Virus genome (UHGV): UHGV-1451962
Direction: 5' to 3' (one strand)
From: a virus
DNA: 64,000 nt
The translations under genes and the position numbers were made by a program. Below the pieces are notes generated by a model. The model did not search any database, was not told the origin of the DNA, and saw only the letters and a list, made by a program, of their open reading frames with translations. Each line of letters opens with the position of its first letter. Position 1 is the stretch's first letter. Positions 2,738 through 35,357 of this stretch are shown piece after piece.

Positions 2738-2877
2738 TTACCCCAAATAGTAACGTTAAAATTAGTCAGCTAGGGAATACCTATTCTTTAGTTGGCACTG
2801 TAGATAAAACTGATATTCCCGTAGAATATCAAGGGCTATTTGGGGATATAGCAACAGAAGATACTTTAAATAAGTAT

Positions 2878-3126
2878 GTGCTTGTTAGATTAAATAATAT
2901 TATTCCTAAAAATGGTGCTACTATTATTCAAAAGAATGAAGCTTTAAAATATTATTATAATAAAGGTGATGTTAATATCACTGAAGTTGGTGGCATTTAT
3001 ACCAAGACTAAGGAATATGATGGAACTGATTCTGATTATGCTTTGTTAATTAAGATTGGTTCTACTGCGGAAGTTACTATTAATGATACTAAATATATTA
3101 TTGATGGTTCTAAATTAACTAATTAA
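2878..3126 (+). CDS. hypothetical small protein
   Basis: 82-aa ORF followed directly by a rho-independent terminator. Confidence 0.3.
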   Translation: MLVRLNNIIPKNGATIIQKNEALKYYYNKGDVNITEVGGIYTKTKEYDGTDSDYALLIKIGSTAEVTINDTKYIIDGSKLTN

Positions 3127-3133
3127 TAAAAAT

Positions 3134-3168
3134 AGGGAAGAGTTTTACTCTTCCCTATTTTTTGTTTT
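3134..3168 (+). terminator. rho-independent terminator
   Basis: 10-bp stem agggaagagt / actcttccct with 3-nt loop followed by attttttgtttt. Confidence 0.6.
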
Positions 3169-3179
3169 AAGGAGAAAAT

Positions 3180-8300: not shown

Positions 8301-11300
8301 AGAATCTAAAGATTCTTTATCTCTTGTTGAACAAGATGAGCTAGCTAATTTAAAACAGCAAGAAGCTTCTTTAGAGAGACAAGCTGATCTAAGAGAGCGT
8401 ATAGTTAAAGCTAAACAAGCAGAAATGGCTTATGCTATTGCAGATAATTTTGACAAAAAATATGACAAGACTTATAAGGTAGAGCCAAAAGGTAGAACTG
8501 GTGCTGACACTTCTAATTTTAAAACACAAGAAGATTTAGATAAATGGTATAATAGTTTAAATTCTGACCAACAGGCAAAAGCATTAGACCAATATCAGAA
8601 TTGGACGCAACAGATAGCAGAAGCTACTGCTCAAATGACTTCTGAAGTAGGAGAAGATTTAGCTGAATTAGAACAAGACTATGCTAATTATTTAGGTGCT
8701 GTTGATTCTGGAGCAATTGTGGCCGATCCGTCTAAGATTGCAGATATGCAGGATAAATTAGCAGAATTAAGAAAATTAATATATCCTACTGATAATCAGT
8801 ATTATGAAATGGTTATCCGTCCGGTATTAGATGATGAATCTTTTGATGAAGTAAGAGATAAGATTTTTAGAGCTTTATCTTCTGGAGATATTAAAGGTGC
8901 TGGATTAGCCTTAACAGATGAAATGCGTTCTGCCATTGAAGCTGCTGGAATTTCTGTTGATGATTTATTTAATCAAATTGCAGAAAGAATGTCTCAGGCC
9001 AGAGAGACCATTAAATCTGAAATGGGCGGTACCGAAGAGCAATTAAATAAATTAACTGCCGAAGATTGGGATATTATTCTTACCTTGGATTTAGAAAACA
9101 TTGGTTCTTTTAGAGAATTAATGAAAGCTATTGAAAATGCTAAAAATACAGACCTTAAAGTTAAAGTAGATACTTCTGAGTTAGATGCAGCAAAAGATAA
9201 AATAGAAAGTTTAAATACTAATGAAGAGCCATTGGAAAAAGCCTTGATGTCTTATAAAGAACAAGGTTATCTTACTATGGATCAGACTTATGAATTAATT
9301 AAAGCTAACGAAGAATATGCTCAATATATTAAAAAAGTTGGAGATGAGTATGTTTTAACTACTCAATCTTTAACTGACTTTACTGAAATGGAAAAAGCTG
9401 AGAAATTGGCTTTAGACCAAGCTATTGAAGCTATGCAAAACAAAGGTAAAGTTGATAGAGATTATGCTCAGCAGTATGTTGATCTTTATAGTAGTTTAAT
9501 TGAAAGTAGTAAAAATTGGTCTGACCAAGAACGTGCAGATAGCGGAGAAAATTTTGATAAAAATACTGAAGCACTTAGAAGACAAGCTCAAGCGTTCCAA
9601 GAAGGAAAGATTAGCGCAAGTGAATATTTTGATGCAATAAATCAAAGAGTTAGTGAAACTGGGGATAATTTTGCAAAATTAAGTGATGGTATAGATGGTC
9701 TTAAAGAATCTGATTATGCAAAAACTATGATTTCCTCTACTACTGCTTTGGCTGATGGTTTTAAAGATTTAATCAGTGAAGTTGAAGCTGGCGGTACTAA
9801 TATGCAAGAGTATTATGCTGGTGCAGTTAAAGGTACTAAAGCTTTAATGAATATCACTGCTAAATCTAATAAATATATCACCAAAACAGCAGATGGTTAT
9901 AAAGTTGTTACTGATAATATTGATGATGCAACTAAAGCTACACAAGACTACAAAGATGCTCAGAAAAAAGTTCAAAATTTAAATACTTGGGAAAAACAAG
10001 TTGATCAAGCTGAAGGATTTAAAAAAGCAATAGATGATATTACTTCTTATTATGATTATTTAAAAAATTATTTAAATGATAATAATTGGCTTGAGTTACC
10101 TGATAATTTTGATACAACAACAACCAAATTTAAAAATATGTGCGATACTATGGCTGCTGATATTTGGTCTTTAAAAGATACAAATGCTGAAGCTTTTAGT
10201 GCGATTATGGCTCACATGGAAACTGAAAATGCTGGTTTTGATTCTAGTTTAATTACTTCTCAAAGTCAATTAGCTAGTGCTATGCAAGGAAATGCAACAA
10301 TAGCTTCTTCTGCTATTAATGGTCTAGCTGCTCAAAGTCAGATTAGTATTGGTACTTTATGTCAAATTGGTGGACAGTTATTACAATCTTTGGCAAGTGC
10401 TATTAGCAGTTTTAGTTATACTATTCAGGCGACTGGTGTTGTTGATAATCCTGGTGGTATTGGTTTAGGCGGAGGATTAGTCGATAAAATTGGTGCTTTA
10501 CTTACAACAGGAGGGAAAATTCCTTTTGAATGGGATATGCCTTCTGCCCATATTGATTTAACAGGTTCTGGTTCTGGTGGTTCACCTATGTTTAGCACTA
10601 CTGGTTCTGCAAGAGCGCAAAAAGTTAATGGCTCTGGTAAATCAAATTATATTCGTTCAAAAGACACTGGTGCTGCTAGCAAAGGTGAGTCATCAGGACT
10701 TTTAGAAAATATTTCTAAATTTGGTACTGCATTAGAAGAATATGGTAAACAATCTGTATTGTCTCAAGGTTTAAAAGCATTTGCCCCTTCAGGAGGAGGA
10801 ACTGGTGGTAGAACTCTTAACCCTAGTGGTATTTCTACTGATAACAATCGTCCTTCTGGTGGAGGAGGAGGAAAAGGCAAAGGTGGTAAAGGAAAAGGCG
10901 GAGGTGGTAAAGGAAAGGGAGGAAAAGGAAAAGGCGGAGGTGGTGGCTCCGGCTCAGATGATTCTCCTGAAATCGAAGATGAAGAAATTTTTGATGATAG
11001 ATACCACGATATTAATAATAGACTAGAAGAACAAAGTCAGCTACTAGATAAGATTGATACTGCTAAAGATAGAGCTTTTGGTGTTAAGAAATTAGAAAAA
11101 TATAAAGAAAAAATTGAAGCAATTAATAAAGAACAAGAATTATATAAAGAAAAATTAAAAAAGACTGAGGAATATTTAAAAGAAGATTTAACTGATTTAC
11201 AAAAGAACTTTTCTGGTGTTAAATTAAATATAGACTCTGATAGTAAAGCTTTATTAAATTATGAAGATTTAGAAAAATGGGCAATAGAAGAATATAATAA

Positions 11301-13932
11301 AGTAGTAAGAAAATATAATGCTTTAGGTTCTAAGACCGCGCAGGAATCTTTTAAAGATACTCTTGATGCTGCAAAGAAAACACTTGATTTAAGAAAAGAA
11401 ATTCTAGAGCAGTATGAAAATGATCAAAAGCAAAGAGTTGAACTTTTAGAAAATATTGCTGAAGAGGCTAGAAAGAAATTTAATGAAAAATTAAGTAGTA
11501 TTAATGCTGTTATAGAAGTTAAATTAAAGATTAAAGATTTTAAAGATACTAATAGAGAAATAGGTAAAAATGTTGTTGAAGCTTTTGGCGATGCTGTTAA
11601 TTGGGGCAAAAAACCTGGACAAATTGATTTCTTTGGTATGCAAGATAACTTAGCTAAAGCTAAAGACTTAGAAGAACATATGAATCAAATATTTAATCTT
11701 ATGTCTGAGTCTGAAGATAGTGCTGATTTTGAAAGTGTTATAGATTCTTTAGAAGATTTACATGGTAATATTGCTGATACTGTTTCTGATTTAAAAGATT
11801 GGTTAGAAAATCTTAGAGAGTATTTAACTGATGTTATTGATGCAGCAGCTGACAGATTTGCACAATTTACTGATCAATTAGACCATAATGGTACTGTATT
11901 AGATTCAGTAAAAGAATTATTAGATTTACAAGGAATAACTTATAAAACTGGTAAGAATTTTGAACTTTTACAGAAAACTATTCAAGGAAGATTGGAAACA
12001 GCTACTTCTACTGCCAAATTACAAAAGCAATGGATGGAAAAAGCTGCGGAACAATTAGCGGAAGCAGAAAAAGCTTTGGCAGGAGTTACTGAAGAAGATG
12101 CAGCTTATGATACTCTTAAAAATAATCGTGATGCTTTATTAAAACAATTTAATGAATCTCAAGAAGCTATGTTAGATGCAGCTAAAGAAGCTATGGAAAC
12201 GGCAAGAGAGTATTATACTAATGCTATTGAGAAAGCTGCTTATGATTTTGAGCAAGCTATTAGTGGCGGAATGGGTTTAGAATTATTGCAGCAAAAATAT
12301 GATAATTTAATTAGTAAAGAAGAAAGATATTTAGATAAAGTTAATGAAACATATGAAGTAAGTAAATGGAATAGACAACTTCAAAAAGCAATAGATGAAG
12401 AAACTAATGAAGCTTCTAAGAATAGATTAAAAACATTACAAAAAGAAATTGAAGTAAGACGTGAAGGTAATAAATTATCTAAATATGATTTGGATATTTT
12501 AGAAGCAAAATATCAAATGACTCTTGCTCAAAATGCTTTGGATGAAGCTCAAAATGCTAAAAATTCAGTGCGGTTAGTCCGCAATGAATCCGGCAACTGG
12601 GATTATCAATTTACAGCTGATCAGTCTAAAATTGATGAAGCTACACAAAAGTATGAAGATGCGGCAAATAACTATTACAATATAGCAAAAGACCAAGTTA
12701 AAAATATGATGGATGAAATTCTGCGATTAAAACAAGATACTTTAGACCAAATTAAAGATGTTTATGAAGATGAAAGTTTAACTGAGGAAGAACGTGGAGA
12801 AAAGATTGCAGAAATTCGTAGAAATGCAAATGATAAAATCCTTTATATTCAGCAAGAATATCAAGTATCTTTAGAAGATATGACAGATGCAGGTGGAGAG
12901 ATAATTACAGAATATGGAAATACTTATAATGATGTAATGAAAATTATGGAAATGGGTACTTCTGACTTTACTGCATATTTTGAAACTGCTCTTGATGAAA
13001 TGGAAAATGCTGCTGATAATTACAATAGCACTATGGAAGAAGTCACTGGGACTACTGGTTCAAATGTAGATGCTTTAAAACAAATTATTGATGATACTAC
13101 CAAATCTACTCAAGATTTAACTACTGCGGGTACTCAAGCCGCAGATGCTGTTTGGAAGAAAATTGAAGAAGTTCGCCAAGCTTCAGAGCAATGGTCTAAT
13201 TATGCAGCGTGTGTACGTCAAGCATTAGATACTTTGTATGAAATGTCTAACTTTGTAACTACTAGAACAGTTGCCGCTTCTGTTGGTGATATGAAAGGGT
13301 ATAATTCTAATATTGACTATTCTTCTGTTATGAATGATTATTTAAGCCAAGGTGGACAAGTTGGAGATGAAATATTTAAGAGTTTAGAATATCAAAGATA
13401 TTTGAAAATTCTTGGAGAAAATTTTGAACAAGGTAAACAGTATATTTATTCTAATGAAGATTATTATAATAAGCAAAATGATCCAGAGTTTCAGAAATGG
13501 CTAAAAGATAATGGCGGAACTGGCAAATATGAGGATTTTGTTAAGAGTCATACAATAGGTTACGCAACAGGAGGCTATACTGGTTCTTTTGATAATGAAG
13601 ATGGTAAATTAGCATTTTTACATGAGAAAGAATTAGTTTTAAATCAAGAGGATACTGAAAATATTCTTTCTGCGGTTTCCGCGGTTAGAACATTAGGGCC
13701 TAATTTGTTTAAACAAATAGAAAGAATTTTGGATAATAATATAATGGCAGGGCAAAATTTATTAAATGCTCGTATGGCTAGTTCTACTACTGTTTCTAGT
13801 GATGGGCAAATAGTTGAACAGATAGTGCATATTCAAGCTGATTTCCCTGGTGTATCCAGTGCAGCAGAAATCGAAGCAGCTCTTAATAATATTGTTAATG
13901 ATGCGGCTCAATATGCTAGTATTAGAAAATAA
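5317..13932 (+). CDS. tail tape measure protein (giant, 2871 aa)
   Basis: Very long ORF with strong RBS; long coiled-coil-like Ala/Gln/Lys/Glu-rich stretches, internal hydrophobic membrane-like segments, and a Gly-Lys low-complexity repeat; lies between the chaperone-like ORF and the large tail or baseplate genes. Confidence 0.55.
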   Translation: MAKRLNYEVGFTGDTSQLKASLNDAVKALQKLGTSSTTQMTQGMREASKSALELANNLKTATNQETGKLDLVTFNRNLANSKMTISDYAKQLSQLGPTGQQAFMKVAQAVTSAELPMRRTNKVLDELWTTMKNTARWQLTSSALHGFMGALNTCVGYSKALDKSLNSIRIVTEQSAEQMADFAVQANSAAKNLSTTTTDYTDAALIYYQQGLNDKEVLDRTDITIKMANAANESAQVVSDQLTAVWNNFYDGSQSLEHYADAMVALGAATASSSDEIAGGLEKFASIADMIGLSFDYAASALATITATTRQSEDVVGTALKTIFARIQGLNLGETLEDGTDLNKYSEALSKVGVSIKDSNGDLRNMDAILDDIGAKWGTLTKDQQVALAQTVAGVRQYNQLVSLMDNWDFFEDNLKIAQNSEGELNKQADIYAESWEAARKRVKAAAEDIYDSILNPESIVAIDDVLTPFLSGIAQVVNALGGLKGIALVVGSVLTSVYSGKLVNGLQNFATNIQIMTGLQGKLTRSLQEQTVTEAENLDIIIGGNRALETEISLMREKVQLQGMINKYTKNYDQSQMLQVNQRVGVIDALRQQIMASAQKQTALLGEAEEFKTTILLDIEPKPGWEERFRQKILQFNTNMVNGPLKNLNSVFLFDEKDDITRTTEKVTASMQKLASQASSIEAVRRAYSNLNIDQKESAVVLQELIQKTGLWKAEMQNWSTPKLQEFLNNLGTQSIEASKGMQLLKQALMELSYSPEAIDQFINSIRRLAAEEHSAAEYTRLINEEIKKFTNSLQTGSIQSESGWAKTVVSMSNHLMNFGMTLSAVSNMGKVFKESMEGNITAGEAFIQIMTNLGMILMSGSSLFMALSKSMGALVSVYTGVNTSVAALTFVTKLNTAAEEGNIAAKIANVAITKLLTVSEGSLAAAMGITIGVLALFAAGIVFAVKIIDGLIVTQKEASQAIADATQNYTDQKSKLDELNSSLEQTRQKIEELESKDSLSLVEQDELANLKQQEASLERQADLRERIVKAKQAEMAYAIADNFDKKYDKTYKVEPKGRTGADTSNFKTQEDLDKWYNSLNSDQQAKALDQYQNWTQQIAEATAQMTSEVGEDLAELEQDYANYLGAVDSGAIVADPSKIADMQDKLAELRKLIYPTDNQYYEMVIRPVLDDESFDEVRDKIFRALSSGDIKGAGLALTDEMRSAIEAAGISVDDLFNQIAERMSQARETIKSEMGGTEEQLNKLTAEDWDIILTLDLENIGSFRELMKAIENAKNTDLKVKVDTSELDAAKDKIESLNTNEEPLEKALMSYKEQGYLTMDQTYELIKANEEYAQYIKKVGDEYVLTTQSLTDFTEMEKAEKLALDQAIEAMQNKGKVDRDYAQQYVDLYSSLIESSKNWSDQERADSGENFDKNTEALRRQAQAFQEGKISASEYFDAINQRVSETGDNFAKLSDGIDGLKESDYAKTMISSTTALADGFKDLISEVEAGGTNMQEYYAGAVKGTKALMNITAKSNKYITKTADGYKVVTDNIDDATKATQDYKDAQKKVQNLNTWEKQVDQAEGFKKAIDDITSYYDYLKNYLNDNNWLELPDNFDTTTTKFKNMCDTMAADIWSLKDTNAEAFSAIMAHMETENAGFDSSLITSQSQLASAMQGNATIASSAINGLAAQSQISIGTLCQIGGQLLQSLASAISSFSYTIQATGVVDNPGGIGLGGGLVDKIGALLTTGGKIPFEWDMPSAHIDLTGSGSGGSPMFSTTGSARAQKVNGSGKSNYIRSKDTGAASKGESSGLLENISKFGTALEEYGKQSVLSQGLKAFAPSGGGTGGRTLNPSGISTDNNRPSGGGGGKGKGGKGKGGGGKGKGGKGKGGGGGSGSDDSPEIEDEEIFDDRYHDINNRLEEQSQLLDKIDTAKDRAFGVKKLEKYKEKIEAINKEQELYKEKLKKTEEYLKEDLTDLQKNFSGVKLNIDSDSKALLNYEDLEKWAIEEYNKVVRKYNALGSKTAQESFKDTLDAAKKTLDLRKEILEQYENDQKQRVELLENIAEEARKKFNEKLSSINAVIEVKLKIKDFKDTNREIGKNVVEAFGDAVNWGKKPGQIDFFGMQDNLAKAKDLEEHMNQIFNLMSESEDSADFESVIDSLEDLHGNIADTVSDLKDWLENLREYLTDVIDAAADRFAQFTDQLDHNGTVLDSVKELLDLQGITYKTGKNFELLQKTIQGRLETATSTAKLQKQWMEKAAEQLAEAEKALAGVTEEDAAYDTLKNNRDALLKQFNESQEAMLDAAKEAMETAREYYTNAIEKAAYDFEQAISGGMGLELLQQKYDNLISKEERYLDKVNETYEVSKWNRQLQKAIDEETNEASKNRLKTLQKEIEVRREGNKLSKYDLDILEAKYQMTLAQNALDEAQNAKNSVRLVRNESGNWDYQFTADQSKIDEATQKYEDAANNYYNIAKDQVKNMMDEILRLKQDTLDQIKDVYEDESLTEEERGEKIAEIRRNANDKILYIQQEYQVSLEDMTDAGGEIITEYGNTYNDVMKIMEMGTSDFTAYFETALDEMENAADNYNSTMEEVTGTTGSNVDALKQIIDDTTKSTQDLTTAGTQAADAVWKKIEEVRQASEQWSNYAACVRQALDTLYEMSNFVTTRTVAASVGDMKGYNSNIDYSSVMNDYLSQGGQVGDEIFKSLEYQRYLKILGENFEQGKQYIYSNEDYYNKQNDPEFQKWLKDNGGTGKYEDFVKSHTIGYATGGYTGSFDNEDGKLAFLHEKELVLNQEDTENILSAVSAVRTLGPNLFKQIERILDNNIMAGQNLLNARMASSTTVSSDGQIVEQIVHIQADFPGVSSAAEIEAALNNIVNDAAQYASIRK
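10858..10950 (+). repeat. Gly-Lys low-complexity coding repeat inside the tape-measure gene
   Basis: Encodes GGGGGKGKGGKGKGGGGKGKGGKGKGGGGGSGS; DNA shows near-tandem copies of aaaggaaaaggcggaggtggt. Confidence 0.7.
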
Positions 13933-21520: not shown

Positions 21521-23416
21521 ATGTTTGAATATCTTAAAGACTATGATTTTTTAAACAAGTTAGATAAATTGCGAGTTCGCGTTCAATATGCGAAACTTAT
21601 TCTTCTTTCTTTTGATGAAAAACCTATTAAAGAAATTCAAGGTAATATTACTGCCGGTTCATTGTCAATTAATGGTTCTTCCGCAATTAGAAGAACTATT
21701 AGCTTAACTATGTTAGCTAATTTAAATAATAATGATTTAACAAATTTAGATAATGATATTTCTTTAAATAAAAAAATTAAAATTTTAATTGGATATAATA
21801 ATCCTTTAAGAGAATATCAAAAATATGGAGAAATTATTTGGTTTCCTTGCGGGGTTTTTTTGGTTTCTACTGCTAGTATTACTAGAGCAACTGGTGGTTG
21901 GACTATCAGTATTTCTGGTAAAGATAAAATGGTAATGTTAGATGGCAGTGTAGGTGGAATGCTACCTGCTTCTGTTACTTTCCATGAATCATATGTGTAT
22001 AATAAGGATAAAACAGAAGCAGTAGTTAATTATCCTACTATTTACCAAATTATTCAAGAAACAGTTAATCATTGGGGAGAAGAGCCAATAAATAATATTT
22101 TTATTACAGATTTAGAGGAAACCGCAAAACTTTTAGTAAAATATATTGGAGAGCAACCTATATATCTAAGTAATAATTATTCTAGTTTAAGTTATACTCC
22201 TGGAGATACTTATCCTTATATGTTTATAAATGGGCAAGATATTGGATATAAAGAAACAGATTTTACTTATCCTGGAGAATTGATTTTAAAAGCTGGCGAT
22301 AGTGTAGTTACTTTATTAAATAAGATTTGCGATACTTTAGGTAATTTTGAATTTTTTTATGATATAGATGGACGTTTTATTTTTCAAGAAAAGAAAAATT
22401 ATTTAAATACTGGAAGTCCGCTATTAGATTTAAATATTGAAGATTATGTACAGAATTATTCAAATACAAAATATGCTTATAGTTTAACTGATTTAGATAA
22501 TATTACTTCTCTTGCTATTGCTCCAAAATATGATGAAATTAAAAATGATTTTATTGTATGGGGAAAAAGAAAAACAACAGATGGTGCAGAAATAGATATT
22601 CGTTATCATTTAGCTATTGATGCTAAACCAATTCTTAATTATTGTTTACAATATATGTGGGCTATTTATGAAAATGAAGTTTTATTAAGATACGAATTTA
22701 CTTATATAAATAATCCTCCTGTTAATGGTAAATTAATAGCTAGTCCTTGTAAAGAATGGCGAGAAGAATTATATAGACAAGCTTTAATTGCTTCCTTAAA
22801 TAATTTAACAAATAGTAATTATGATATGGAACTATTAGCTGAATGGCGTAATTTATATGACCCTGAAAATGCAGATTGGAAAGTAACAGATAATTGGAAT
22901 CCAAAAGTTTATTCTGACCCTAGAAATTTAAATTATTGGCTAGATTTTATAGATACTGGTACAGCAATTGGTAAATACTCAGTCAATATGATTGGACGTC
23001 GCACAAAAGTTATTAATAGTTCTGAAGTAACTTGTATATATAATACAGAAGTTCCTGATGTTATTTTTATGACCCAAGAACAATGGGAAAATGTAGAAAA
23101 AAGAAAATATTATGATTCTATTGGTCAAAAATATTTTAGAATTACTGATAATTATAAATCTATTTTTGCTAGTAGTTCTACTGGTTCTAGTGCTTTTGAT
23201 CAAATTCGAGAATTATTATATCAAAATTTAAGTTATAATACTCAAGTCACTATACAAGGAGTACCCAAGTATTATTTAGAACCAAATAATATTATTTATA
23301 TAGAAGATATGGAAAGTAATATTATAGGAAATTATGCGATTTCTCAAATTACTTTACCTTTAACTTATTCAGGCACAATGTCAATTACAGCTACAGAAGT
23401 GCTAACTAGAGTATAA
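21521..23416 (+). CDS. tail or baseplate structural protein (631 aa)
   Basis: ORF with strong RBS (agaggagg); co-oriented within the tail block. Confidence 0.4.
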   Translation: MFEYLKDYDFLNKLDKLRVRVQYAKLILLSFDEKPIKEIQGNITAGSLSINGSSAIRRTISLTMLANLNNNDLTNLDNDISLNKKIKILIGYNNPLREYQKYGEIIWFPCGVFLVSTASITRATGGWTISISGKDKMVMLDGSVGGMLPASVTFHESYVYNKDKTEAVVNYPTIYQIIQETVNHWGEEPINNIFITDLEETAKLLVKYIGEQPIYLSNNYSSLSYTPGDTYPYMFINGQDIGYKETDFTYPGELILKAGDSVVTLLNKICDTLGNFEFFYDIDGRFIFQEKKNYLNTGSPLLDLNIEDYVQNYSNTKYAYSLTDLDNITSLAIAPKYDEIKNDFIVWGKRKTTDGAEIDIRYHLAIDAKPILNYCLQYMWAIYENEVLLRYEFTYINNPPVNGKLIASPCKEWREELYRQALIASLNNLTNSNYDMELLAEWRNLYDPENADWKVTDNWNPKVYSDPRNLNYWLDFIDTGTAIGKYSVNMIGRRTKVINSSEVTCIYNTEVPDVIFMTQEQWENVEKRKYYDSIGQKYFRITDNYKSIFASSSTGSSAFDQIRELLYQNLSYNTQVTIQGVPKYYLEPNNIIYIEDMESNIIGNYAISQITLPLTYSGTMSITATEVLTRV

Positions 23417-26313: not shown

Positions 26314-26916
26314 ATGGCTTTATTTAAAGTTTTTTATGGAACAGAAGCTGAGATGAATCAAGTCGCAGTAAAAGAGTCTTATGCTTATATCCTAGAAGAG
26401 AATGATTGTATGTATGTCGATTTTAATAATGCTAGACATAAATTAAATGCGGGATATGCAGAAAAACTTCGGAAATTTAATGCGGCTGGAGCAGTTGAAA
26501 TAGAAATTGATCCAGAAGAATTGGTTTTAAATTCTGATATTATTGATATAGAACATGGTGGCACTGGTGGCAAAACTGCGGCTGAAGCAAGAACTAATTT
26601 AGATGTTTATAGTAAAACAGAAGTAAGCGATAATATTAAAACTGCTACTGATAAGGTCACTTCTAAGGCTTATCCTGCTACATTGTCCGTAGGAGCTTGG
26701 ACATTAGATGGAGAAGTTTATAAAATGTCTTATTTAATTGAAACTTTGAAGTGTGGTGCTGATGGTACGGTTCCGCCAATTATTACTTACACCAACAATT
26801 TAGAAGAATATTCTAAAATTGAAAAGGCTACTGCTACTCCTGGTTTTGGAGTTACTTTCGAGATAAAAGAAAAACCTACTGATAGTATAGGTATTATTAT
26901 TGTAGATAATTGTTAA
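26314..26916 (+). CDS. tail fibre protein (N-terminal GGTG-type motif)
   Basis: Contains DIEHGGTGGKTAAEARTNLDVY, which matches the conserved N-terminal tail-fibre motif; start placed at the ATG 7 nt after aaggagg rather than the track start at 26290. Confidence 0.5.
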   Translation: MALFKVFYGTEAEMNQVAVKESYAYILEENDCMYVDFNNARHKLNAGYAEKLRKFNAAGAVEIEIDPEELVLNSDIIDIEHGGTGGKTAAEARTNLDVYSKTEVSDNIKTATDKVTSKAYPATLSVGAWTLDGEVYKMSYLIETLKCGADGTVPPIITYTNNLEEYSKIEKATATPGFGVTFEIKEKPTDSIGIIIVDNC

Positions 26917-26929
26917 TAAAAATAAAATG

Positions 26930-26962
26930 GGTAAGAGCTAAATGCTCTTACCCATTTTTTTG
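26930..26962. terminator. bidirectional rho-independent terminator at strand switch
   Basis: Stem gggtaagagc / gctcttaccc with 5-nt loop; T-run on plus strand and U-rich flank on the minus strand; lies between convergent genes. Confidence 0.6.
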
Positions 26963-26964
26963 TT

Positions 26965-27402
26965 TTATATAATATGATAATAAGGTTTTTCTTCATCAAA
27001 GATTTTCCATCTAAGAAAATCATCTAAAATAATTCCTATTAGACCTAGAATAAACCAAAGACAACTAAAAGATAAACATATTTGTCCTTTATAATTAAAA
27101 GGTAAATGTGAATAATCCCAAATATTAAGTTGTAATTGAATGTTTAAAATATATCCAAATAAAAATTCTAAACTTGTTATAATTGCGGTTCCAATTAATC
27201 CTTGAGCCAATAAAGACCAATTCCAAGGAATATTTTCATTTAAGCTACCTAAAATTAAAAAAGATAAACCGCCTAAGATAAACATTGACCAATGAGTATT
27301 TCCTGAATGTATATATGTTTTGTAAACAAATTCAATTAACCAGTAAATACTTCCGCCAATCAAAAATAATATAGAATTTCTAAAAAAAGAATTAATTTTC
27401 AT
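26965..27402 (-). CDS. integral membrane protein (function unknown)
   Basis: 145-aa ORF with several hydrophobic helix-length segments; overlaps the upstream minus-strand ORF by 11 nt. Confidence 0.4.
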   Translation of the reverse strand: MKINSFFRNSILFLIGGSIYWLIEFVYKTYIHSGNTHWSMFILGGLSFLILGSLNENIPWNWSLLAQGLIGTAIITSLEFLFGYILNIQLQLNIWDYSHLPFNYKGQICLSFSCLWFILGLIGIILDDFLRWKIFDEEKPYYHII

Positions 27403-28051
27403 ATTTTAATTCTATGGCTTTAATTTCCTTATAATTTTTAGCAGTATAAATTTGTGTTTTATATTGTTGCATTTTTTTATAATAAGGATAAACAAAATCA
27501 GAAATAGCTAAAGCTAAAGCAGTCAAATTTTCAACTGTCCAAGATGTACATTCTTCTTGGCGAGCATGCCATTCTAATCTAGGATTCTCTGCTCCAGCCT
27601 GAACTGCCATAGAATATTGATTCATATTTAGGCTAATTTCTGATTGATCTTCTTCTGTAACTCCATATTGCTTTCCATCAATCCAAGTCAAAGGATTATT
27701 AATGAGGAAATTAGCGAAAGCTTTTTTATTTTCTTCTTGTTTCATTTTTTGATATTCTTCTAAAGAATAGTAATATGTTAATTCATTTTTTTCATTATCA
27801 TATTTATAAAAATTAGGTTCATAATCTTCTGGAATATTACCATCAAAAGATAAGATTCTTACTGCATCAATAGAACCTGTCATATCTGAATTAGCCAAAA
27901 TGAAATGGCTATTGCAATCTGAGCCTATTACTCCTGTAGCTTCACCTTCCGAGCAAGCAATGACAATACTTGGGTTGGATTGTAATTTGATGTAGCGGAT
28001 TTCCGCAAGGATATCGACTACTATATTTTCTCTATTGATTAATAAATACAT
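27392..28051 (-). CDS. hypothetical protein, translationally coupled to the DGR reverse transcriptase
   Basis: 219-aa ORF whose start overlaps the RT stop by 1 nt; no recognisable motif. Confidence 0.4.
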   Translation of the reverse strand: MYLLINRENIVVDILAEIRYIKLQSNPSIVIACSEGEATGVIGSDCNSHFILANSDMTGSIDAVRILSFDGNIPEDYEPNFYKYDNEKNELTYYYSLEEYQKMKQEENKKAFANFLINNPLTWIDGKQYGVTEEDQSEISLNMNQYSMAVQAGAENPRLEWHARQEECTSWTVENLTALALAISDFVYPYYKKMQQYKTQIYTAKNYKEIKAIELKYEN

Positions 28052-29307
28052 TATAATATTTCAACTCCTTTAAATAATGAATGGAAATAATTATCAAGAT
28101 TTTGTATAATATAAAAAGTAGTACCTTTATTTATATGTTCTCTAAAACCTCGATATGATTCTTGAATTTCTATATCAGTTATTTTACCTTGTAGCCAAAG
28201 TTGGTGCATTTTTCTCATTTTTCTATATTGTCGCTTTATTTTCTTTTTAAATGGAGTTTGAATAATTTTATTCGTATTAGTTAAATAAAAATCCCATTTT
28301 AAATATTTAAATGGATTATGTTTATCCGAACGTCTTTTATGAGGATAATTATTTTTATCTAGTTTTATTGGACTAATTTTAATTATTTTAGTTTTTCTTT
28401 TGTTACATTTTAAATGTATTTTATTTAATTCATTTTCAATTTTATTAAGACATTCTTTTAAATAATCTTTGTCATTATGCAAAATATAAATATCGTCCAT
28501 ATAACGTCCATAATATTTTAAATGCAAATGCTCTTTTGCATAATGGTCAATTCCATTTAATGCCAATAAAGCTAATAATTGAGATGCTTGACTACCTAAA
28601 CCTAAACTTTTATGATTAAATTCATAATAAGTACAATTTTTATAAAATTGTTTAGGATAAATTATCTTATATTTTTGTTTTTTGATGATATAGTATTGTT
28701 TATTAGGAATAGGAACTGTATCTTTTGTGACTGAAAAACAAAAGGTATCAATAATATAATCAATTAATTTAAATACTCGTTTTTCTTTAATATAATGTTT
28801 TGCCATTTGCTTTAAAGAATTATGGTCTATTGAATCAAAAAATTTTTGAATATCAATTCTTAAACCATAAAAAGATTTTCCTAAACCATATGTTCTGTGC
28901 GCTGCTTGTAAATGTTTACGCACTTCTAGCAAAGCAAAATCAATTCCTTTTCCTTTTAATGTAGCACAATTATCATAAATAAATTTTGGAGTTAGTTCTG
29001 GAATAAGAACTTGCGAACATAATGTATTTTGTGCCAATCTGTCATAAATATGGCACGCTCTTATATCTCTGGGTTTGCCCCGCTCAATTATACTAAAACT
29101 GTTAAAAACTAATTGTTCATAACTGTCATTTTCTAATTGTTCTTTAAGCGTTAAGATGTTATTTAATCTATTTTCTTCAAAATTAACTGTACTATCTTTC
29201 CATCTTACGTTTCGGCAAATAGAATAAGAAGAATCATAAAAAGCGTCAAAATTACAAAAACGCTGGAAAAGATTTTCTTCTATAAAAAATTCTCCTTTTT
29301 TTATCAT
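28051..29307 (-). CDS. DGR-type reverse transcriptase
   Basis: 418 aa; RT motif 2 (GLRIDIQKFFDSIDH), DGR-type motif 4 (GLGSQASQ = GxxxSQ), catalytic YMDD (YGRYMDDIYIL); lies directly downstream of the TR in the canonical target-avd-TR-RT order. Confidence 0.85.
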   Translation of the reverse strand: MIKKGEFFIEENLFQRFCNFDAFYDSSYSICRNVRWKDSTVNFEENRLNNILTLKEQLENDSYEQLVFNSFSIIERGKPRDIRACHIYDRLAQNTLCSQVLIPELTPKFIYDNCATLKGKGIDFALLEVRKHLQAAHRTYGLGKSFYGLRIDIQKFFDSIDHNSLKQMAKHYIKEKRVFKLIDYIIDTFCFSVTKDTVPIPNKQYYIIKKQKYKIIYPKQFYKNCTYYEFNHKSLGLGSQASQLLALLALNGIDHYAKEHLHLKYYGRYMDDIYILHNDKDYLKECLNKIENELNKIHLKCNKRKTKIIKISPIKLDKNNYPHKRRSDKHNPFKYLKWDFYLTNTNKIIQTPFKKKIKRQYRKMRKMHQLWLQGKITDIEIQESYRGFREHINKGTTFYIIQNLDNYFHSLFKGVEIL

Positions 29308-29588
29308 GCGGTGCTAGATTGTGTGCTCTGACACGCACATCCGCAATCTTAATTAATTATCTGTATAGATAAAAGGTTAAATTCTCCTTAAATGAAAGCT
29401 ATCTATTATAATCTAAGTCTTTTATTTAATATTTCCTCTCCTTCTTGGTTTTAAAACCAATGCGTCCAGAAAATACCAAAATAGATGAGTTATAACATAG
29501 GTTATAATTTTCTGGGGTAACACTTAGTCGTCTCAGTCGATGTCGCCTGCGGCTCCATCACCAGAGACAGTTAGAGTTCTCATCTAAT

Positions 29589-29693
29589 CGGGCGCGAGGT
29601 AATTGTTGTTGTTGTAGTTGGTATTGTTCGCATTACCATCAGAGTTGACATTGCACACATTGTTCGTGTTGTTCGAGTTGTAGTAGCGAGACC
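29589..29693 (-). repeat. DGR template repeat (TR)
   Basis: About 105 nt, 84/105 identical to the VR; 20 of 21 differences lie at plus-strand T (adenine on the transcribed minus strand); non-coding, between the Avd-like ORF and the RT. Confidence 0.85.
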
Positions 29694-29726: not shown

Positions 29727-30191
29727 TTATTTGTATCGCTGAGAATAAATTAGATTATCTCTATTTATTCTATCAAGAAGATTTTGTTTTAATTTGTAAG
29801 TAAGTTTAGCAACATATTTGAAAGATTTATTTTTCTTTTTATTATTTAACCCATATTCATAAATACATAAATCTAATTGCCTTAAAATTGAATCACAATA
29901 TCTTATTGATTTATTAAAGTAATCTGCTCTTTCAACTAAAGTTTTTTTATTTTTTAGATTGATTAAACTAGCAGAGAAAGCATATCCATGTGCGTTTTTG
30001 GCACATTTTAAAATATCTGCACCAAAAGCTGAATAATAGTATGGATTACCAAGAATACCTGGTTTAATATGAGAACCATCATCTAATTCTTGATATGGAC
30101 GAACTAAAATTAATACTTGATGGACTAACTTTCTTGCATCATTTAAATAATCATTTTTAGATTGATGCCTATCTTTTTTTCTTACTGACAA
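29727..30191 (-). CDS. avd: Avd-like accessory variability determinant (putative)
   Basis: 154-aa basic (Lys/Arg-rich) ORF with TTG start after aaaggagg, placed between VR and TR as Avd is in known DGRs; assignment by position and composition only. Confidence 0.5.
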   Translation of the reverse strand: MSVRKKDRHQSKNDYLNDARKLVHQVLILVRPYQELDDGSHIKPGILGNPYYYSAFGADILKCAKNAHGYAFSASLINLKNKKTLVERADYFNKSIRYCDSILRQLDLCIYEYGLNNKKKNKSFKYVAKLTYKLKQNLLDRINRDNLIYSQRYK

Positions 30192-30254: not shown

Positions 30255-30315
30255 AGAAAAAAAATTTTTAGAAAAAATTTTTTTCCCAGAAAAGGTGAAA
30301 GCATTTTTATACTAT

Positions 30316-30341
30316 GGCATTGGCCCTTTTGGGCCAATGCC
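30316..30341 (-). promoter_or_regulatory. GC-rich hairpin 3' of the VR (candidate DGR target-recognition hairpin)
   Basis: Perfect 11-bp inverted repeat ggcattggccc / gggccaatgcc with 4-nt loop, about 30 nt downstream of the target-gene stop; no U-run on the minus strand, so it is not a canonical terminator. Confidence 0.5.
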
Positions 30342-30369
30342 AATATAACCTTACTGTATAACTTTACAG

Positions 30370-32154
30370 TTATCCAATAACGAAAGCGGGCGCGAGGTAA
30401 CGGTAGTTGGCGTAGTAGGTAAAGTCCGCACCACCATCAGAGTCGACACGGCACACATAGCCCGTGTAGTCCGAGTAGTAGTTGCGAGACCGCTCCCAAT
30501 ACCATTTGGAATCTCCTGAACTGTTACCATTAGCATCTTGAATGTTTTTTATACGGGAGCTGTCACTTGTGTAATAATCATAAGCAGCATTATATCCTTT
30601 AGTACATTCTGCATTGGAAACAGTAGAATTAGCAGTGCTGATTGGAGAATAACTATCTAATCCCATTTCTCTCTCAGAAGGAATCCAAACAGTTTCGTTA
30701 TTATAACTAACATTAGCACTTCTATTATCATCCCAATTATCGCAAGTACCTTTAGATACTGTTTTTATAGATGCTTTAGCAGCACAAGCATTATAAAAAT
30801 TTTGACAATAACTTCTAGCATTAGAACCAATCCATTGTGCGCTATTATCACCAAAAGTAGTCATATTCGGCAAGAGATAAACACTATGAAAAGCTAAAGT
30901 TTTATCTCCATCTTTGTCATAGCCAATACAACGCATTGTAACAGCATTTGCTCCTAAAACATTAGTAGATAAATTCATCTTTTTAGTTTTACCAACTAAA
31001 GCTTGACGTTCTGAAGCAGAAGAATTGTTAAGCCAAGACTTTAAGCCAGCCCACCAAGAAGCATCTCCCGCAGCACTCTCATTTCCCCAAGTCCAATATG
31101 TAGCAGTAGCAGTAATTTTTTTATTCGCGGGAGTTGTATAATTGGTACTGGCTGCTATTGATACAGTAATAGTAGCAGTTCCCGCGGTTGTACCATTGCC
31201 TTTAATGGTAATTGTTTTACCGCTTACTGTTGCTGAAGCCACATTAGAATTAGTAGAAGTTACAGAAATTGTACCAGTAGAATTAGTGGTCACAGTAACT
31301 TTTACACCAGTAGAATAATTAGATGCGTCAATAGAAACAGTAGAAGTGCTTAGACTTAATGTTCCTGTTGCTTTTTGAATAGACCAATCAACATTTTTCG
31401 CGGTTGTTGTCTTATCAGGCCATCTGTAATTATTTTTAGGAGTAAAAGTAGCTGTATATTTTCCTGCATTAATTCCCGATGTAGTTCCTCCAATAGTCAT
31501 GTAACTTGTATTATAATTTGACCAATTTGGACTTTGCGAATTGGCGTTATAAGTTAAAGTTCCAGTTTGAGAAGGAATAGGAACTGTTTTTCTTTCTACT
31601 GTTACAGAAAAAGTAGTAGTTTTAGTAATACTATTTTCTGTATAAGAAACAGTAATTGTTTGAGTACCAACTGTATTTAAAACAGAAGGTGAAGTTGTCC
31701 AACCAGAAACAGTAGCGGTTTTACCATCAGAATAAGTGGCAGTAACAGACATTCCGGCAGATTCAAATGTCTCGCCATATTCATAAATTGTCTTAGTTGG
31801 TTTTGTGCTTGTGATGCTGGTTAGTGCATGGATAACAGTAACTGCTTGCTCGGCGGTACAAGTAACTCCTCCTTCAGAGTAAGTAATAGTAACTTTAGTT
31901 ACTCCATCAGTTAAAGGAGAAGGTGTTACAGTATATCCAGTTACCGCAGTAGAAGAAACAACAATATTATCAATGGCATAATTGGCAGTTATAACCATTC
32001 CTGTTGTTTCAAATTCTTGTCCAGCAACGTAAGATGTACGGTTTGGTGGAGTAGTAACTTCAATAGAGTGGAGTGCTATTGAGCTTCCGCCACCTTTTCC
32101 GCCTTGTTCAGTTAAAATGCATTTAACAGGCAAGGTATAAGACCTCCTTATCAA
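30370..32154 (-). CDS. DGR target protein: Ig-like repeat protein with C-terminal lectin-fold-like variable domain
   Basis: 594-aa ORF; tandem Thr/Ser-rich Ig-like segments (e.g. GVTKVTITYSEGGVTCTAEQAVTVIH), then a C-terminal domain containing WIPSEREMGL and the VR; likely true start is the TTG at 32133 (9 nt after aaggagg) rather than 32154. Confidence 0.8.
   Translation of the reverse strand: MIRRSYTLPVKCILTEQGGKGGGSSIALHSIEVTTPPNRTSYVAGQEFETTGMVITANYAIDNIVVSSTAVTGYTVTPSPLTDGVTKVTITYSEGGVTCTAEQAVTVIHALTSITSTKPTKTIYEYGETFESAGMSVTATYSDGKTATVSGWTTSPSVLNTVGTQTITVSYTENSITKTTTFSVTVERKTVPIPSQTGTLTYNANSQSPNWSNYNTSYMTIGGTTSGINAGKYTATFTPKNNYRWPDKTTTAKNVDWSIQKATGTLSLSTSTVSIDASNYSTGVKVTVTTNSTGTISVTSTNSNVASATVSGKTITIKGNGTTAGTATITVSIAASTNYTTPANKKITATATYWTWGNESAAGDASWWAGLKSWLNNSSASERQALVGKTKKMNLSTNVLGANAVTMRCIGYDKDGDKTLAFHSVYLLPNMTTFGDNSAQWIGSNARSYCQNFYNACAAKASIKTVSKGTCDNWDDNRSANVSYNNETVWIPSEREMGLDSYSPISTANSTVSNAECTKGYNAAYDYYTSDSSRIKNIQDANGNSSGDSKWYWERSRNYYSDYTGYVCRVDSDGGADFTYYANYRYLAPAFVIG
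30387..30491 (-). repeat. DGR variable repeat (VR) at the 3' end of the target gene
   Basis: Matches the TR with substitutions almost exclusively at TR adenine positions; encodes the C-terminal ~35 residues (…YYSDYTGYVCRVDSDGGADFTYYANYRYLA…); shared GC-rich 3' boundary cgggcgcgagg. Confidence 0.85.
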
Positions 32155-32250
32155 GAATTATTATTAGAGTTTTAAAACTCCATCATTATTTATAGAATAA
32201 AGTACACCTTTTAGATTAATTGGGAACGTACTTTCCATAAAAAATGTAAA

Positions 32251-32286
32251 ATTGGGAAAAGGATATAAAAATATCCTTTTCCCAAT
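32251..32286. repeat. perfect 16-bp-arm palindrome in the divergent intergenic region
   Basis: attgggaaaaggatat-aaaa-atatccttttcccaat; flanked at 32199-32210 and 32383-32394 by a 12-bp inverted repeat (aaagtacacctt / aaggtgtacttt). Confidence 0.6.
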
Positions 32287-32424
32287 ATAAAAATATATTC
32301 TAAAAGTTTGGATATCTTATCCTTTTCATCTATACTTAAAGATTATTTTAATTAATTTTCCTTAGATTGACCAATGTTTCATAAGGTGTACTTTTTAAAC
32401 TTATATTTTGAAAGGAGTTTTTAA

Positions 32425-34170
32425 ATGGCTGTTCAATGTGTACTTGTCGGAAAAGGCAAGGATGATGTATTTACTGCTGTTTATGGCGAAACTACATTTG
32501 ATAAAGTGTTAAAAGCTTATAATGAAAATAAAGTAGTTCAAGTGATTTATCAAAATCGTATTTATTATTTAGATAATACTACTGTTGTAGATTCTCCTGA
32601 AGCATTTTCTTTTATTTCTGCTTTTAGTAATCAAAATGATGAAGCTGGTGAAATAAAGCATTATGTAATAAGTTTAATGACAGGAGATAGTTGGTCTGGG
32701 CCTTTCTTACAGAAATCTACTCCAGCAACTCACGCGAATACTCATAGTAAAAATGGTGATGATCCACTTACCCCCGCAGATATTGGAGCTATGGAATTAT
32801 CAGAAAATGTTCTTAAACAATCAAATGAAGATATTACTTCTCAAGTAGCGCAAGCTTTATTTGGGGATTTAGTTCCTTTTAGCGGTGGAACCATGACTGG
32901 TTTGTTAAATGTTCTTACTCCTGTTAGAGATAGTAATGCTACTACTAAAAAGTATGTAGATGATGCTTTGAGTGAGAAAATTGGAATGGATGGCATTGGC
33001 GATTTGCATGTATGGAAGAAGACTATAATAACAAAACAGGAGATTCCAGCAAGTTTTACTTTAGGTGATGTACACTCTGGTTCGTTTCGTTTTGTTAGTG
33101 GTGAAACTAATGTGTTGTTAGTAGGTACTCCTAAAGTTAATGAGAGTGGTGTCGTTACCTTAACAAACTCTGCGCAGTATAATTTTAATTATAATTCTTC
33201 ATCTCCTAGTATATCTGATCTGCGAGGACAGTATTGCATGTTTACCATGATAGCCGATCAATTTTCTAGTTTTACTGCCAATAAAGTTTTTTATATACCC
33301 ACTGATGCAAACTATATTTCTTTATCAAGTTCTAAAAATATTACTAAATATCAAGATGTTAATGGTACACCTAAAATTCCTGCCGAAGTAACTACTACCT
33401 ATCCCGCATCTACTAATCCCAATGCGTATCAAGAGGGGAGCGATGCAAAACCAGCAGGATATGTACTTGGTAATGTGATAACAGGTTCATTTTGTATTGG
33501 TAATACAACAGCACCTACGAGAGCTGCTTATTATGTCGCATCTGATATTTCTGTATCTGATAATGGTGTTTTATCTATTTCAACACAAACAAATATAACT
33601 ATTGGTGGTAATTTTTTTGTATCTAGCCGTGATTTAATTGCTGGTAAATTTATACAAATTTATAATAAAGGGTCTATGTCTTCTGTTTTATCTGAACCAT
33701 TCACAACAGTACCAGGCCCAATTATTTATATTCCGAATGATGTAAACTTAACGTCTGGCGGTGATGGAAATTTAAATTTATATATTGATCGCTACCAACC
33801 TATTACTGGCTACGCTGCTATCCCCGCAGGCACCACTATTGAATATCTGGGGAAGTTGGGAGATAAGACTAGGGTAATAATTGGCTCGTATATTGGGACA
33901 GGGGTCTGCGGGGCAGAGAATCCGACCAAAATAAAAACGAGTTTTTTACCGAAACTTGTAGCAATAAATGGAGTAGGAAATACCGGCAGTACGGGCATTA
34001 TTCTGTTTTTTCGAGATATGAACTATGCGTTCTCAGAAATCGGCTCAAGTACCAACTTTAACTTTACTAATATAACCTGGTTATCAGACGGAGTACATTG
34101 GTATTCTAGCAAAGTCCTTATGCAGGGGAATAAGCAGGGGGCAATTTATAAATACATTGTTATCGGTTAA
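32425..34170 (+). CDS. tail fibre protein
   Basis: 581-aa ORF with RBS (aaaggag); contains the tail-fibre motif FSGGTMTGLLNV and an HANTHSKNGDDPLTPADIGA segment; last ~110 codons are visibly GC-richer. Confidence 0.6.
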   Translation: MAVQCVLVGKGKDDVFTAVYGETTFDKVLKAYNENKVVQVIYQNRIYYLDNTTVVDSPEAFSFISAFSNQNDEAGEIKHYVISLMTGDSWSGPFLQKSTPATHANTHSKNGDDPLTPADIGAMELSENVLKQSNEDITSQVAQALFGDLVPFSGGTMTGLLNVLTPVRDSNATTKKYVDDALSEKIGMDGIGDLHVWKKTIITKQEIPASFTLGDVHSGSFRFVSGETNVLLVGTPKVNESGVVTLTNSAQYNFNYNSSSPSISDLRGQYCMFTMIADQFSSFTANKVFYIPTDANYISLSSSKNITKYQDVNGTPKIPAEVTTTYPASTNPNAYQEGSDAKPAGYVLGNVITGSFCIGNTTAPTRAAYYVASDISVSDNGVLSISTQTNITIGGNFFVSSRDLIAGKFIQIYNKGSMSSVLSEPFTTVPGPIIYIPNDVNLTSGGDGNLNLYIDRYQPITGYAAIPAGTTIEYLGKLGDKTRVIIGSYIGTGVCGAENPTKIKTSFLPKLVAINGVGNTGSTGIILFFRDMNYAFSEIGSSTNFNFTNITWLSDGVHWYSSKVLMQGNKQGAIYKYIVIG

Positions 34171-34730: not shown

Positions 34731-35357
34731 GTGAAAAAGGTGTTATATGGTTATGCAAGAGTTTCTTCCCGCGACCAAAATATAGATAGACAAATAATTG
34801 CATTAAAAGAGGTCGGCGTAGAAGAAGAAAATATCTTCATAGATAAACAATCAGGTAAAGATTTTAATAGACCTTCTTATCAAGAATTATTAGAAACAAT
34901 TAAAACAGGAGATATGGTAATTATAAAATCCATAGATAGATTAGGTCGAAATTATTCAGAAATTTTAGAACAGTGGAGAATTATTACTAAAGTTCTGAAT
35001 GTAGATATTAAAGTTATTGATATGCCGTTACTCGATACCTCCTACGGGGATGGTACATTAAATAACTTTATAGCTGATTTAGTTTTACAAATTCTCTCTT
35101 TTCAGGCAGAACAAGAGAGAATTTGTATTAAACAGCGACAAGCAGAAGGAATAGCTGCTGCAAAACAAAAAGGAGTTAAATTTGGCCGACCCCGCAAACA
35201 GCTTCCTTCTAATTTTGAAGATTTATATTATAGATATTTAAATAATGAACCAGTGGATAGATTATCAAAAGATTGTAAAGGATTATCTAAATCTACTTTG
35301 CGGTTGCGACTACAAGAACGTCATTCTAAAGATAAAGCATTGGGTGTAATTATTTAA
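34731..35357 (+). CDS. small serine recombinase (resolvase/invertase family)
   Basis: 208 aa, GTG start after agaggtg; N-terminal catalytic motif YGYARVSSRDQ, then DRLGRN; C-terminal HTH region with GRPRK. Confidence 0.8.
   Translation: MKKVLYGYARVSSRDQNIDRQIIALKEVGVEEENIFIDKQSGKDFNRPSYQELLETIKTGDMVIIKSIDRLGRNYSEILEQWRIITKVLNVDIKVIDMPLLDTSYGDGTLNNFIADLVLQILSFQAEQERICIKQRQAEGIAAAKQKGVKFGRPRKQLPSNFEDLYYRYLNNEPVDRLSKDCKGLSKSTLRLRLQERHSKDKALGVII

Follow-up and report, generated by a model that had tools for sequence, protein, structure and literature searches.

A diversity-generating retroelement in a large gut phage with a probable target protein composed of an immunoglobulin-like stalk and a DUF6273 lectin-fold head

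The Mtd protein from Bordetella phage BPP-1 and TvpA of Treponema denticola are the prototype C-type-lectin-fold variable proteins of diversity-generating retroelements (DGRs), and prokaryotic DGR targets with this fold are generally not known to have the EPN/QPD and WND motifs for Ca2+ and sugar binding. Here we describe a DGR on the minus strand of a 64,000-nucleotide (nt) stretch (the window) of the UHGV virus genome UHGV-1451962, in which the uninterrupted open reading frame (ORF) at 30370–32154 is very probably the target gene of an active phage DGR, with a variable protein that consists of an N-terminal peptide, four immunoglobulin-like (Ig-like) domains and a C-terminal DUF6273 lectin-fold head. 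This design of DGR target, with an Ig stalk and a lectin head, is already documented in Faecalibacterium phages, in tentaclins and in stool contigs of the Human Microbiome Project (HMP).

Ig domains lying upstream of a C-type-lectin domain that bears the variable repeat (VR), and not themselves mutagenised, were noted in 2018 by Wu et al. (PMC5758913), and an Ig-plus-lectin target, which we compared by its description, is the HMP stool DGR variable protein SRS018351.18527 (Ye 2014, PMC4159848). DUF6273 itself is diversified by DGRs in Roos, Pioen, Lelie and CP11, phages of Faecalibacterium in which the VR lies at its C-terminal end (PMC11792537), and serves as a DGR-diversified C-type-lectin-like head in Toutatis-like phages (10.1101/2024.10.15.618418). 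It is also the DGR-diversified C-type-lectin head of the tentaclins, for which Baykov et al. (2023, PMC10743442) proposed a role as virion tentacles that bind receptors. Three or four Ig-like stalk domains accompany the DGR-diversified DUF6273 head in the tentaclins and in the Hoc-like FP_Mushu and FP_Brigit targets, as they do in the protein described here. The window protein differs from the tentaclins by its opposite domain order: in tentaclins the lectin head with the VR is N-terminal and a C-terminal Ig-like anchor is supposed, whereas here the Ig domains are N-terminal, the head with the VR is C-terminal and the anchor would be N-terminal.

The cultured phage FP_Taranis encodes an annotated DGR target with DUF6273, gp68, directly after its baseplate and tail-fibre genes. 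It and the DGR targets of the Faecalibacterium phages Roos and Pioen are 31–32% identical to the window protein over residues 185–593 in the numbering of the longest, 594-amino-acid (aa) form of the ORF, that is, Ig domains 3–4 plus DUF6273; the homology to gp68 begins at residue 185, or about residue 178 in the 587-aa numbering used below unless stated otherwise. The gene order target, small ORF, reverse transcriptase (RT), downstream of tail-fibre genes, is also common to these phages and the window. From the proteins of the Faecalibacterium phages FP_Taranis, Roos and Pioen the window protein differs by two extra N-terminal Big_3 domains and an N-terminal tag (KCIL), neither of which they have; Pioen carries an A511 gp105-like N-terminal domain instead (PMC11792537). 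These phages are also smaller, at ~52–54 kb, compared with ~137 kb and an SPbeta-type polymerase here. With such a design already on record, the finding, although correct, is an ordinary one and in itself of little weight, confirming a working DGR on an Ig-stalk, lectin-head adhesin in a metagenomic gut phage. What it adds is a clean, population-verified case in a phage that is much larger and has an SPbeta-type polymerase, a C-terminal-head form that is the mirror image of the tentaclins and, in the shared N-terminal tag discussed below, one lead worth following.

The cassette consists, all on the same strand, of the target ORF, a 154-aa ORF, a 108-nt repeat, a 418-aa RT and two further small ORFs, and it ends at a hairpin (26909–26973) situated between convergent genes. 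Its main elements are as follows.

30370–32133, minus strand: coding sequence of the probable DGR target (variable protein), 587 aa from TTG 32133, with the stop codon TAA at 30370–30372
30384–30491, minus strand: VR, codons 548–584, covering the last four beta-strands of the lectin-fold domain (final 36 codons)
30315–30342, minus strand: GC-rich hairpin ~40 nt downstream of the VR, with a 12-bp stem, an AAAA loop and no T-run (−22.8 kcal/mol, z = −7.5)
29727–30191, minus strand: Avd-like accessory ORF, 154 aa, so named only for its canonical position and size between target and template repeat
29586–29693, minus strand: template repeat (TR), with 38 adenines and 15 AAY (Asn) codons in the VR reading frame
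28051–29307, minus strand: DGR RT, 418 aa (RVT_1, 55.7 bits; phrog_1423, E = 3.4e-75)

The two 108-nt copies differ by 22 mismatches, which affect 21 of the 38 adenines of the downstream copy and only 1 of its 70 other bases (Fisher p = 4e-11). Because the mismatches concentrate on the adenines of the downstream copy, 29586–29693 was assigned as the TR and 30384–30491 as the VR. Besides the 15 AAY codons, eight more TR codons, read in the VR frame, have an adenine at position 1 or 2. A candidate IMH-like, GC-rich 3′ end is CTCGCGCCCG, with which both repeats close and beyond which they diverge. A pattern made from the non-adenine skeleton of the TR matched only the TR and the VR within the window (0 matches expected), and this search revealed no second VR in the 64-kb window of the ~137-kb genome. 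The sole non-adenine mismatch, a T to A change, opposes TAC in the TR (29685) to AAC in the VR (30483) at codon 551, on the 5′ edge of the VR; in relatives this codon specifies N, D or Y, which adenine mutagenesis of a TAC template could not produce.

The RT translation contains the motifs LGLGSQASQ (GxxxSQ) and YMDD, and its class was read from RVT_1, phrog_1423 and these motifs. An ORF in the position of the Avd-like ORF was also called in several related phage loci (labelled L001 to L008 below), with 154–164 aa in L001, L003 and L007 and 150 aa in L008, and the window copy resembles FP_Taranis gp70 over its N-terminal 19 aa only. Following the BPP-1 precedent, the hairpin at 30315–30342 is a putative DGR target-recognition hairpin, and its spacing from the VR is presumably larger than in BPP-1. 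A megablast search of the cassette against GenBank phages returned no match.

The VR is diversified in the population precisely where the TR predicts. In an alignment of the window protein with 24 database relatives (86–100% identity), the columns with at least six residue types (n = 15) coincide exactly with the 15 AAY-templated codons. Entropy, averaged over columns, is 1.87 bits for adenine-templated codons, 0.06 bits for the remaining codons of the VR and 0.17 bits elsewhere in the protein. Relatives that are 86–94% identical overall each differ at 11–20 VR codons, always at adenine-templated sites, and in L001 the TR is identical to that of the window, with a VR that differs at adenine positions. 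With VR variation at adenine-templated codons and an identical TR next to a different VR, the loci show the pattern that mutagenic homing leaves when it is ongoing or very recent, indicating, at the level of sequence comparison, that the DGR is active. By analogy with BPP-1 Mtd and TvpA, the TR transcript would be reverse-transcribed with adenine-specific errors and the resulting cDNA would replace the VR; variation would then arise at the tip of an otherwise invariant lectin scaffold, yielding a reprogrammable adhesin. The theoretical diversity amounts to ~4e17 sequences for the 15 Asn codons alone and up to ~3e22 for all adenine-containing codons.

The extent of the target gene depends on its start codon. 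Counted from the first TTG (32154), the ORF has 594 aa, and the preliminary description of this DNA had preferred the TTG at 32133, which is preceded by a ribosome-binding site.

32143–32149, minus strand: Shine-Dalgarno (SD) sequence AAGGAGG, 9 nt upstream of the in-frame TTG 32133, read directly from the sequence

A start at 32154 would place this SD inside the ORF. The closest database homologues have 587 aa and the N-terminus MPVKCILTEQ, the gene callers having picked the 587-aa form, and the longer homologue calls beginning with MKEV correspond to ATG-AAG-GAG-GT, that is, to the SD translated as codons. The SD, a spacer of 8–9 nt and TTG-CCT-(NNN)-AAR-TGY-ATT-TTA are kept in all seven related loci compared (L001–L004 and L006–L008), the targets of which have identities to the window protein down to ~54–58%; the SD takes the form GAAGGAGG or AAGGAGG in these relatives, with the spacing unchanged. 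This conservation in all seven loci indicates that TTG 32133 is the correct start, and the preference for it was well founded.

The C-terminal part of the protein, which contains the VR, forms a single domain.

30373–31098, minus strand: DUF6273 domain with a C-type-lectin fold, residues 346–587

When the C-terminal region was scanned in isolation (residues 345–594 in the 594-aa numbering), it matched Pfam DUF6273 (PF19789) with 35.3 bits (E = 1.4e-8; profile positions 28–170 of 172; cut-off 23.5 bits), and no other family was reported up to E = 10. Most homologues carry PF19789. The preliminary description had proposed a DUF1566 or C-type-lectin-fold scaffold, to be checked by profile hidden Markov model searches for Ig-like, DUF1566 and FGE-sulfatase families; in those searches Big_3 appeared twice in the full-length protein and DUF6273 on the isolated head, and DUF1566 and FGE-sulfatase were ruled out as sequence families, neither being reported up to E = 10. 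The lectin fold was thus retained and the family assignment replaced. Full-length Pfam and NCBIfam scans, on the other hand, reported no lectin-type family and missed DUF6273. Because the match disappears when the full-length Thr/Ser-rich protein is scanned, full-length Pfam scans in routine annotation may overlook DUF6273 heads in proteins of this kind.

The fold assignment is based on structural matches of an AlphaFold2 (AF2) model built from a 30-sequence alignment, with a mean predicted local distance difference test score (pLDDT) of 87.5. The modelled head resembles C-type lectin domains, and structural comparison gave scores of 15.5 for the domain at the N-terminus of Thomasclavelia ramosa's IgA protease (9qa6_A, DUF6273 according to PMC12402451), 8.3 for the C-terminal domain of Legionella Lcl (8q4e, the DUF1566 prototype), 7.2 for the DGR variable protein TvpA (2y3c), 7.2 for a Bdellovibrio fibre tip domain and 5.4–6.8 for over 40 classical C-type lectin domains as well as for FGE-like sulfoxide synthases. 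The T. ramosa DUF6273 domain differs in being cellular and non-diversified, as part of a cell-wall-anchored metallopeptidase, for the catalysis of which it is dispensable (PMC12402451), and no sequence-level match to 9qa6 was obtained in the PDB search. Compared with the Lcl domain, the head described here (~240 aa) is about twice as large, with extra helices and loops. PDB sequence searches with the protein and with a profile returned weak Big_3-type matches only, and none for the head domain.

The motif WIPSEREMGL (30658–30687) lies within this domain, as does the VR, so that the C-terminal lectin-fold domain described earlier with these two elements is borne out. Between the variable residues stand the invariant W546, E547, R548, S549, V560, C561, V563, G567 and L580–F584. 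By analogy with known DGR targets, we infer that these invariant residues belong to the scaffold and that the variable positions occupy an exposed face of the lectin head.

N-terminal to the head, the AF2 model shows residues 1–16 with a pLDDT below 50 and then four all-beta domains in succession, which lead to the alpha/beta domain at 346–587.

31831–32076, minus strand: Ig-like domain 1 (Big_3-like), residues 20–101; all-beta in the AF2 model, pLDDT ~90; Big_3 18.2 bits when scanned alone, below threshold
31594–31824, minus strand: Ig-like domain 2 (Pfam Big_3), residues 104–180; 42 bits, E = 1.2e-10, profile positions 1–68 of 68; pLDDT ~94
31372–31587, minus strand: predicted Ig-like domain 3 (beta-sandwich), residues 183–254; all-beta in the AF2 model, pLDDT 91–96; weak He_PIG match, E = 0.017
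31099–31368, minus strand: predicted Ig-like domain 4 (beta-sandwich), residues 256–345; all-beta in the AF2 model, pLDDT 86–96

The full-length Pfam scan reported Big_3 only, in two stretches that together gave the protein 43.8 bits (gathering threshold 21.2 bits), and Ig-like domain 1 is the second of these stretches. The domain scan of Ig-like domain 3 yielded no Pfam family above threshold, and that of domain 4 yielded nothing below E = 0.04, with a weak phmmer match to the phage cementing protein 3j4u_H (E = 0.47); domains 3 and 4 are therefore predicted from the AF2 model. Thr and Ser make up 36% of residues 20–345, compared with 19% of the C-terminal domain. The Thr/Ser-rich Ig-like repeats reported from the sequence were thus recovered both by Big_3, twice, and by the structure prediction that had been suggested as a check, which returned four beta-sandwich domains followed by the C-terminal alpha/beta domain. 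Judged by this architecture, the Ig-like array would form an extended stalk that keeps the variable head away from the virion.

At the other end of the protein is a short peptide that recurs at the start of the divergently transcribed neighbouring gene.

32080–32133, minus strand: N-terminal tag MPVKCILTEQ and Gly-rich linker GGKGGGSS, residues 1–18, pLDDT 43–52
32425–34170, plus strand: divergent neighbour, fibre-like virion protein, 581 aa, with the N-terminus MAVQCVLVGKG, which resembles the target tag

The low pLDDT (43–52) suggests that the tag is not folded alone. KCIL(T/A)EQ, with a Gly-rich linker behind it, does not vary among homologues whose call includes the N-terminus. Among the 70 SD-preceded starts of the window, only those of the target and the neighbour encode C(I/V)L within the first nine residues, and the six-frame background of the C(I/V)L tag is 2.5e-4 per position. 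The neighbour proteins begin with MSLKCILQGQ in L002, MECILTGQ in L003, MSIKCILNEQ in L006 and MKCILEGK in L007, so that a (K/Q)C(I/V)L-type peptide starts both divergent genes in five lineages, in which the neighbour proteins are otherwise mutually unrelated. The tag is conserved at the protein level, because the codons differ (TGT GTA CTT compared with TGC ATT TTA). It lies at 32104–32133 (minus strand) and 32425–32457 (plus strand) in the window, at ~5680 in L002, ~3678 in L006 and ~3681 in L007 (all minus strand), and at the neighbour start in L003. The earlier statement that the protein lacks an obvious tail-anchoring N-terminus is therefore doubtful, given a conserved peptide of the MPVKCILTEQ type that is common to the adjacent fibre-like gene in five lineages.

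This conservation, and the recurrence of the peptide at the neighbour N-terminus, suggest a shared docking tag. We tentatively propose, as a possibility derived from sequence patterns, that the (K/Q)C(I/V)L peptide could be a portable tag by which the adhesin and a swappable neighbour fibre plug into the same tail-tip adaptor. If this reading were true, the phage would bear a fixed binder next to a self-reprogramming one, and the tag, if real, would be an entry point to the question of how virions mount their accessory binders and could aid host-range engineering.

Some members of the neighbour family are collagen-repeat proteins with matches to tail-fibre PHROGs; the window gene gave no PDB match in the sequence search. 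In the chimeric proteins P0311, P0312 and P0144, the N-terminal ~190 aa of the neighbour and its conserved C-terminal ~130 aa flank a DUF6273 domain, which ends in the same VR-like YWERSR...VC.V...LAPAFVIG motif. Such a chimera stands head-to-head with an Ig-DUF6273 target in L004 (89–1843, minus strand; 2135–3847, plus strand). Because the neighbour fibre gene there carries its own DUF6273, chimera-bearing phages have two head-to-head DUF6273 genes and, possibly, two DGR targets.

A small serine recombinase is encoded two genes past the fibre-like gene (34731–35357, plus strand; Resolvase domain, 105.6 bits), and every related locus that extends far enough has a resolvase-domain gene on that same side. 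An invertible promoter or tail-fibre shufflon, considered on account of the matching N-termini and the serine recombinase, was rejected: the DNA inverted repeat is ~72–78% complementary and contains an indel, no good flanking inverted repeats were present, and the N-termini resemble each other as protein sequences, their codons being different.

Where on the particle the adhesin would be displayed was judged from these data and from gene context. The cassette sits between tail-module genes (a tail protein is encoded at 21521–23416) and the fibre-like gene. Together with the fibre-like neighbour, the DUF6273 chimeras and the position of FP_Taranis gp68, this tail-module context leads us to favour, on balance, a location on the distal tail, and we consider a capsid location doubtful; both are our own estimates. 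The protein would be attached to the virion through its N-terminal end and not through its C-terminus, with the (K/Q)C(I/V)L peptide common to the adjacent fibre-like gene as the best anchor candidate, which likewise points to the distal tail.

Several observations weigh against a DGR-diversified adhesin held on the tail by this tag. The Avd-like ORF had no Pfam, NCBIfam or PDB match; the N-terminal tag was spotted post hoc and is just ~7–10 residues long; and the neighbour gene of L008 has no tag. Capsid decoration proteins, Hoc among them, typically have tandem Ig-like arrays as well, and the matches of the model in BFVD comprise, besides fibres, a Hoc protein and major tail or capsid proteins that contain Ig domains.

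It is accordingly conceivable, if rather unlikely, that the protein is a Hoc-like capsid decoration protein, with its Ig array on the phage head and its lectin head adhering to mucus or gut glycans (bacteriophage-adherence-to-mucus) rather than to the host. The four tandem Ig-like domains of the model and the BFVD matches to Hoc and to a major capsid protein with Ig domains would suit such a role, and related targets in Faecalibacterium and Toutatis-like phages have been annotated as Hoc-like (PMC10743442, PMC11792537, 10.1101/2024.10.15.618418). However, beyond the Ig array and the lectin head, the AF2 model contains no domain fit as a capsid-binding module, and Hoc binds by its C-terminal domain, whereas the C-terminus here is the variable head. 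The gene, moreover, is located in the tail-fibre region and not in the head module, its N-terminal tag is common to the fibre-like neighbour, and the homologue in Pioen carries at its N-terminus a domain like that of the A511 gp105 tail fibre (PMC11792537).

We also think it unlikely that the protein is the primary, essential receptor-binding fibre, a tropism determinant like Mtd, instead of an accessory adhesin. C-type-lectin-fold DGR targets such as BPP-1 Mtd do determine tropism, the cassette lies among distal tail genes, and in relatives DUF6273 is also found on the fibre scaffold itself. Nevertheless, the model has no trimerising shaft or coiled-coil and is a beads-on-a-string chain of Ig domains, a separate fibre-like gene is present next door, and some related phages keep target genes without a DGR (10.1101/2024.10.15.618418). 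It is very improbable that the cassette is a decayed relic, with a TR/VR likeness that is historical and a protein that is now a fixed adhesin: the one mismatch that is not of the adenine type (T to A, VR codon 551) and the Avd-like ORF without a family match would fit decay, but RT, TR and Avd-like ORF are all intact, the TR of L001 is identical while the VRs differ at adenine positions, and the 86–94% identical relatives differ at 11–20 VR codons, all of them adenine-templated.

The phage that carries this cassette is a large, siphovirus-type gut phage of ~137 kb with an SPbeta-like DNA polymerase. The window encodes an exceptionally long tape measure protein of 2871 aa (5317–13932, plus strand), which implies a very long tail, with tail proteins downstream, and also NrdD and a YorL-like DNA polymerase III alpha that is 38% identical to those of SPbeta-group Bacillus phages. 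A protein identical to the fibre-like neighbour was found on a 137,671-bp contig. A crAss-like phage, suspected from the 2871-aa ORF and the GC content of ~30%, was rejected because of what the two genes encode, the ORF a tape measure protein and the polymerase gene a YorL/SPbeta-like enzyme.

The window phage uses the standard code. The related phages L002 and L003 seem to read TAG as sense, probably as Gln, and positions of this kind (called 'q') also occur in L006 and L007. With TAG read through, coverage by long ORFs rose from 2.7 kb to 11.3 kb. The L003 target homologue has seven in-frame TAGs, four of which fall within the alignment of the window protein to P0061 (the protein called on L003), and these four stand at columns with Q in the window protein or in P0061.

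The two small ORFs that follow the RT on the same strand encode a 219-aa DUF4376 protein (27392–28051, minus strand) and a 145-aa CmpB-like membrane protein (26965–27402, minus strand). An ORF of 215–225 aa also lies behind the RT in L001, L002, L003, L006 and L008, and a membrane protein of 145–149 aa is also present in L001, L002 and L006. The two proteins may have a functional link with the cassette, of which a role as fibre chaperone or as holin-like protein would be an example.

The intergenic region between the target gene and its divergent neighbour is 290 bp long and contains a perfect palindrome with 15-bp arms at 32251–32284 (TTGGGAAAAGGATAT aaaa ATATCCTTTTCCCAA). A perfect 12-nt inverted repeat, AAAGTACACCTT, is located upstream of each of the two divergent genes (32199–32210 and 32383–32394), and these repeats and the palindrome may be operator or shared promoter elements.

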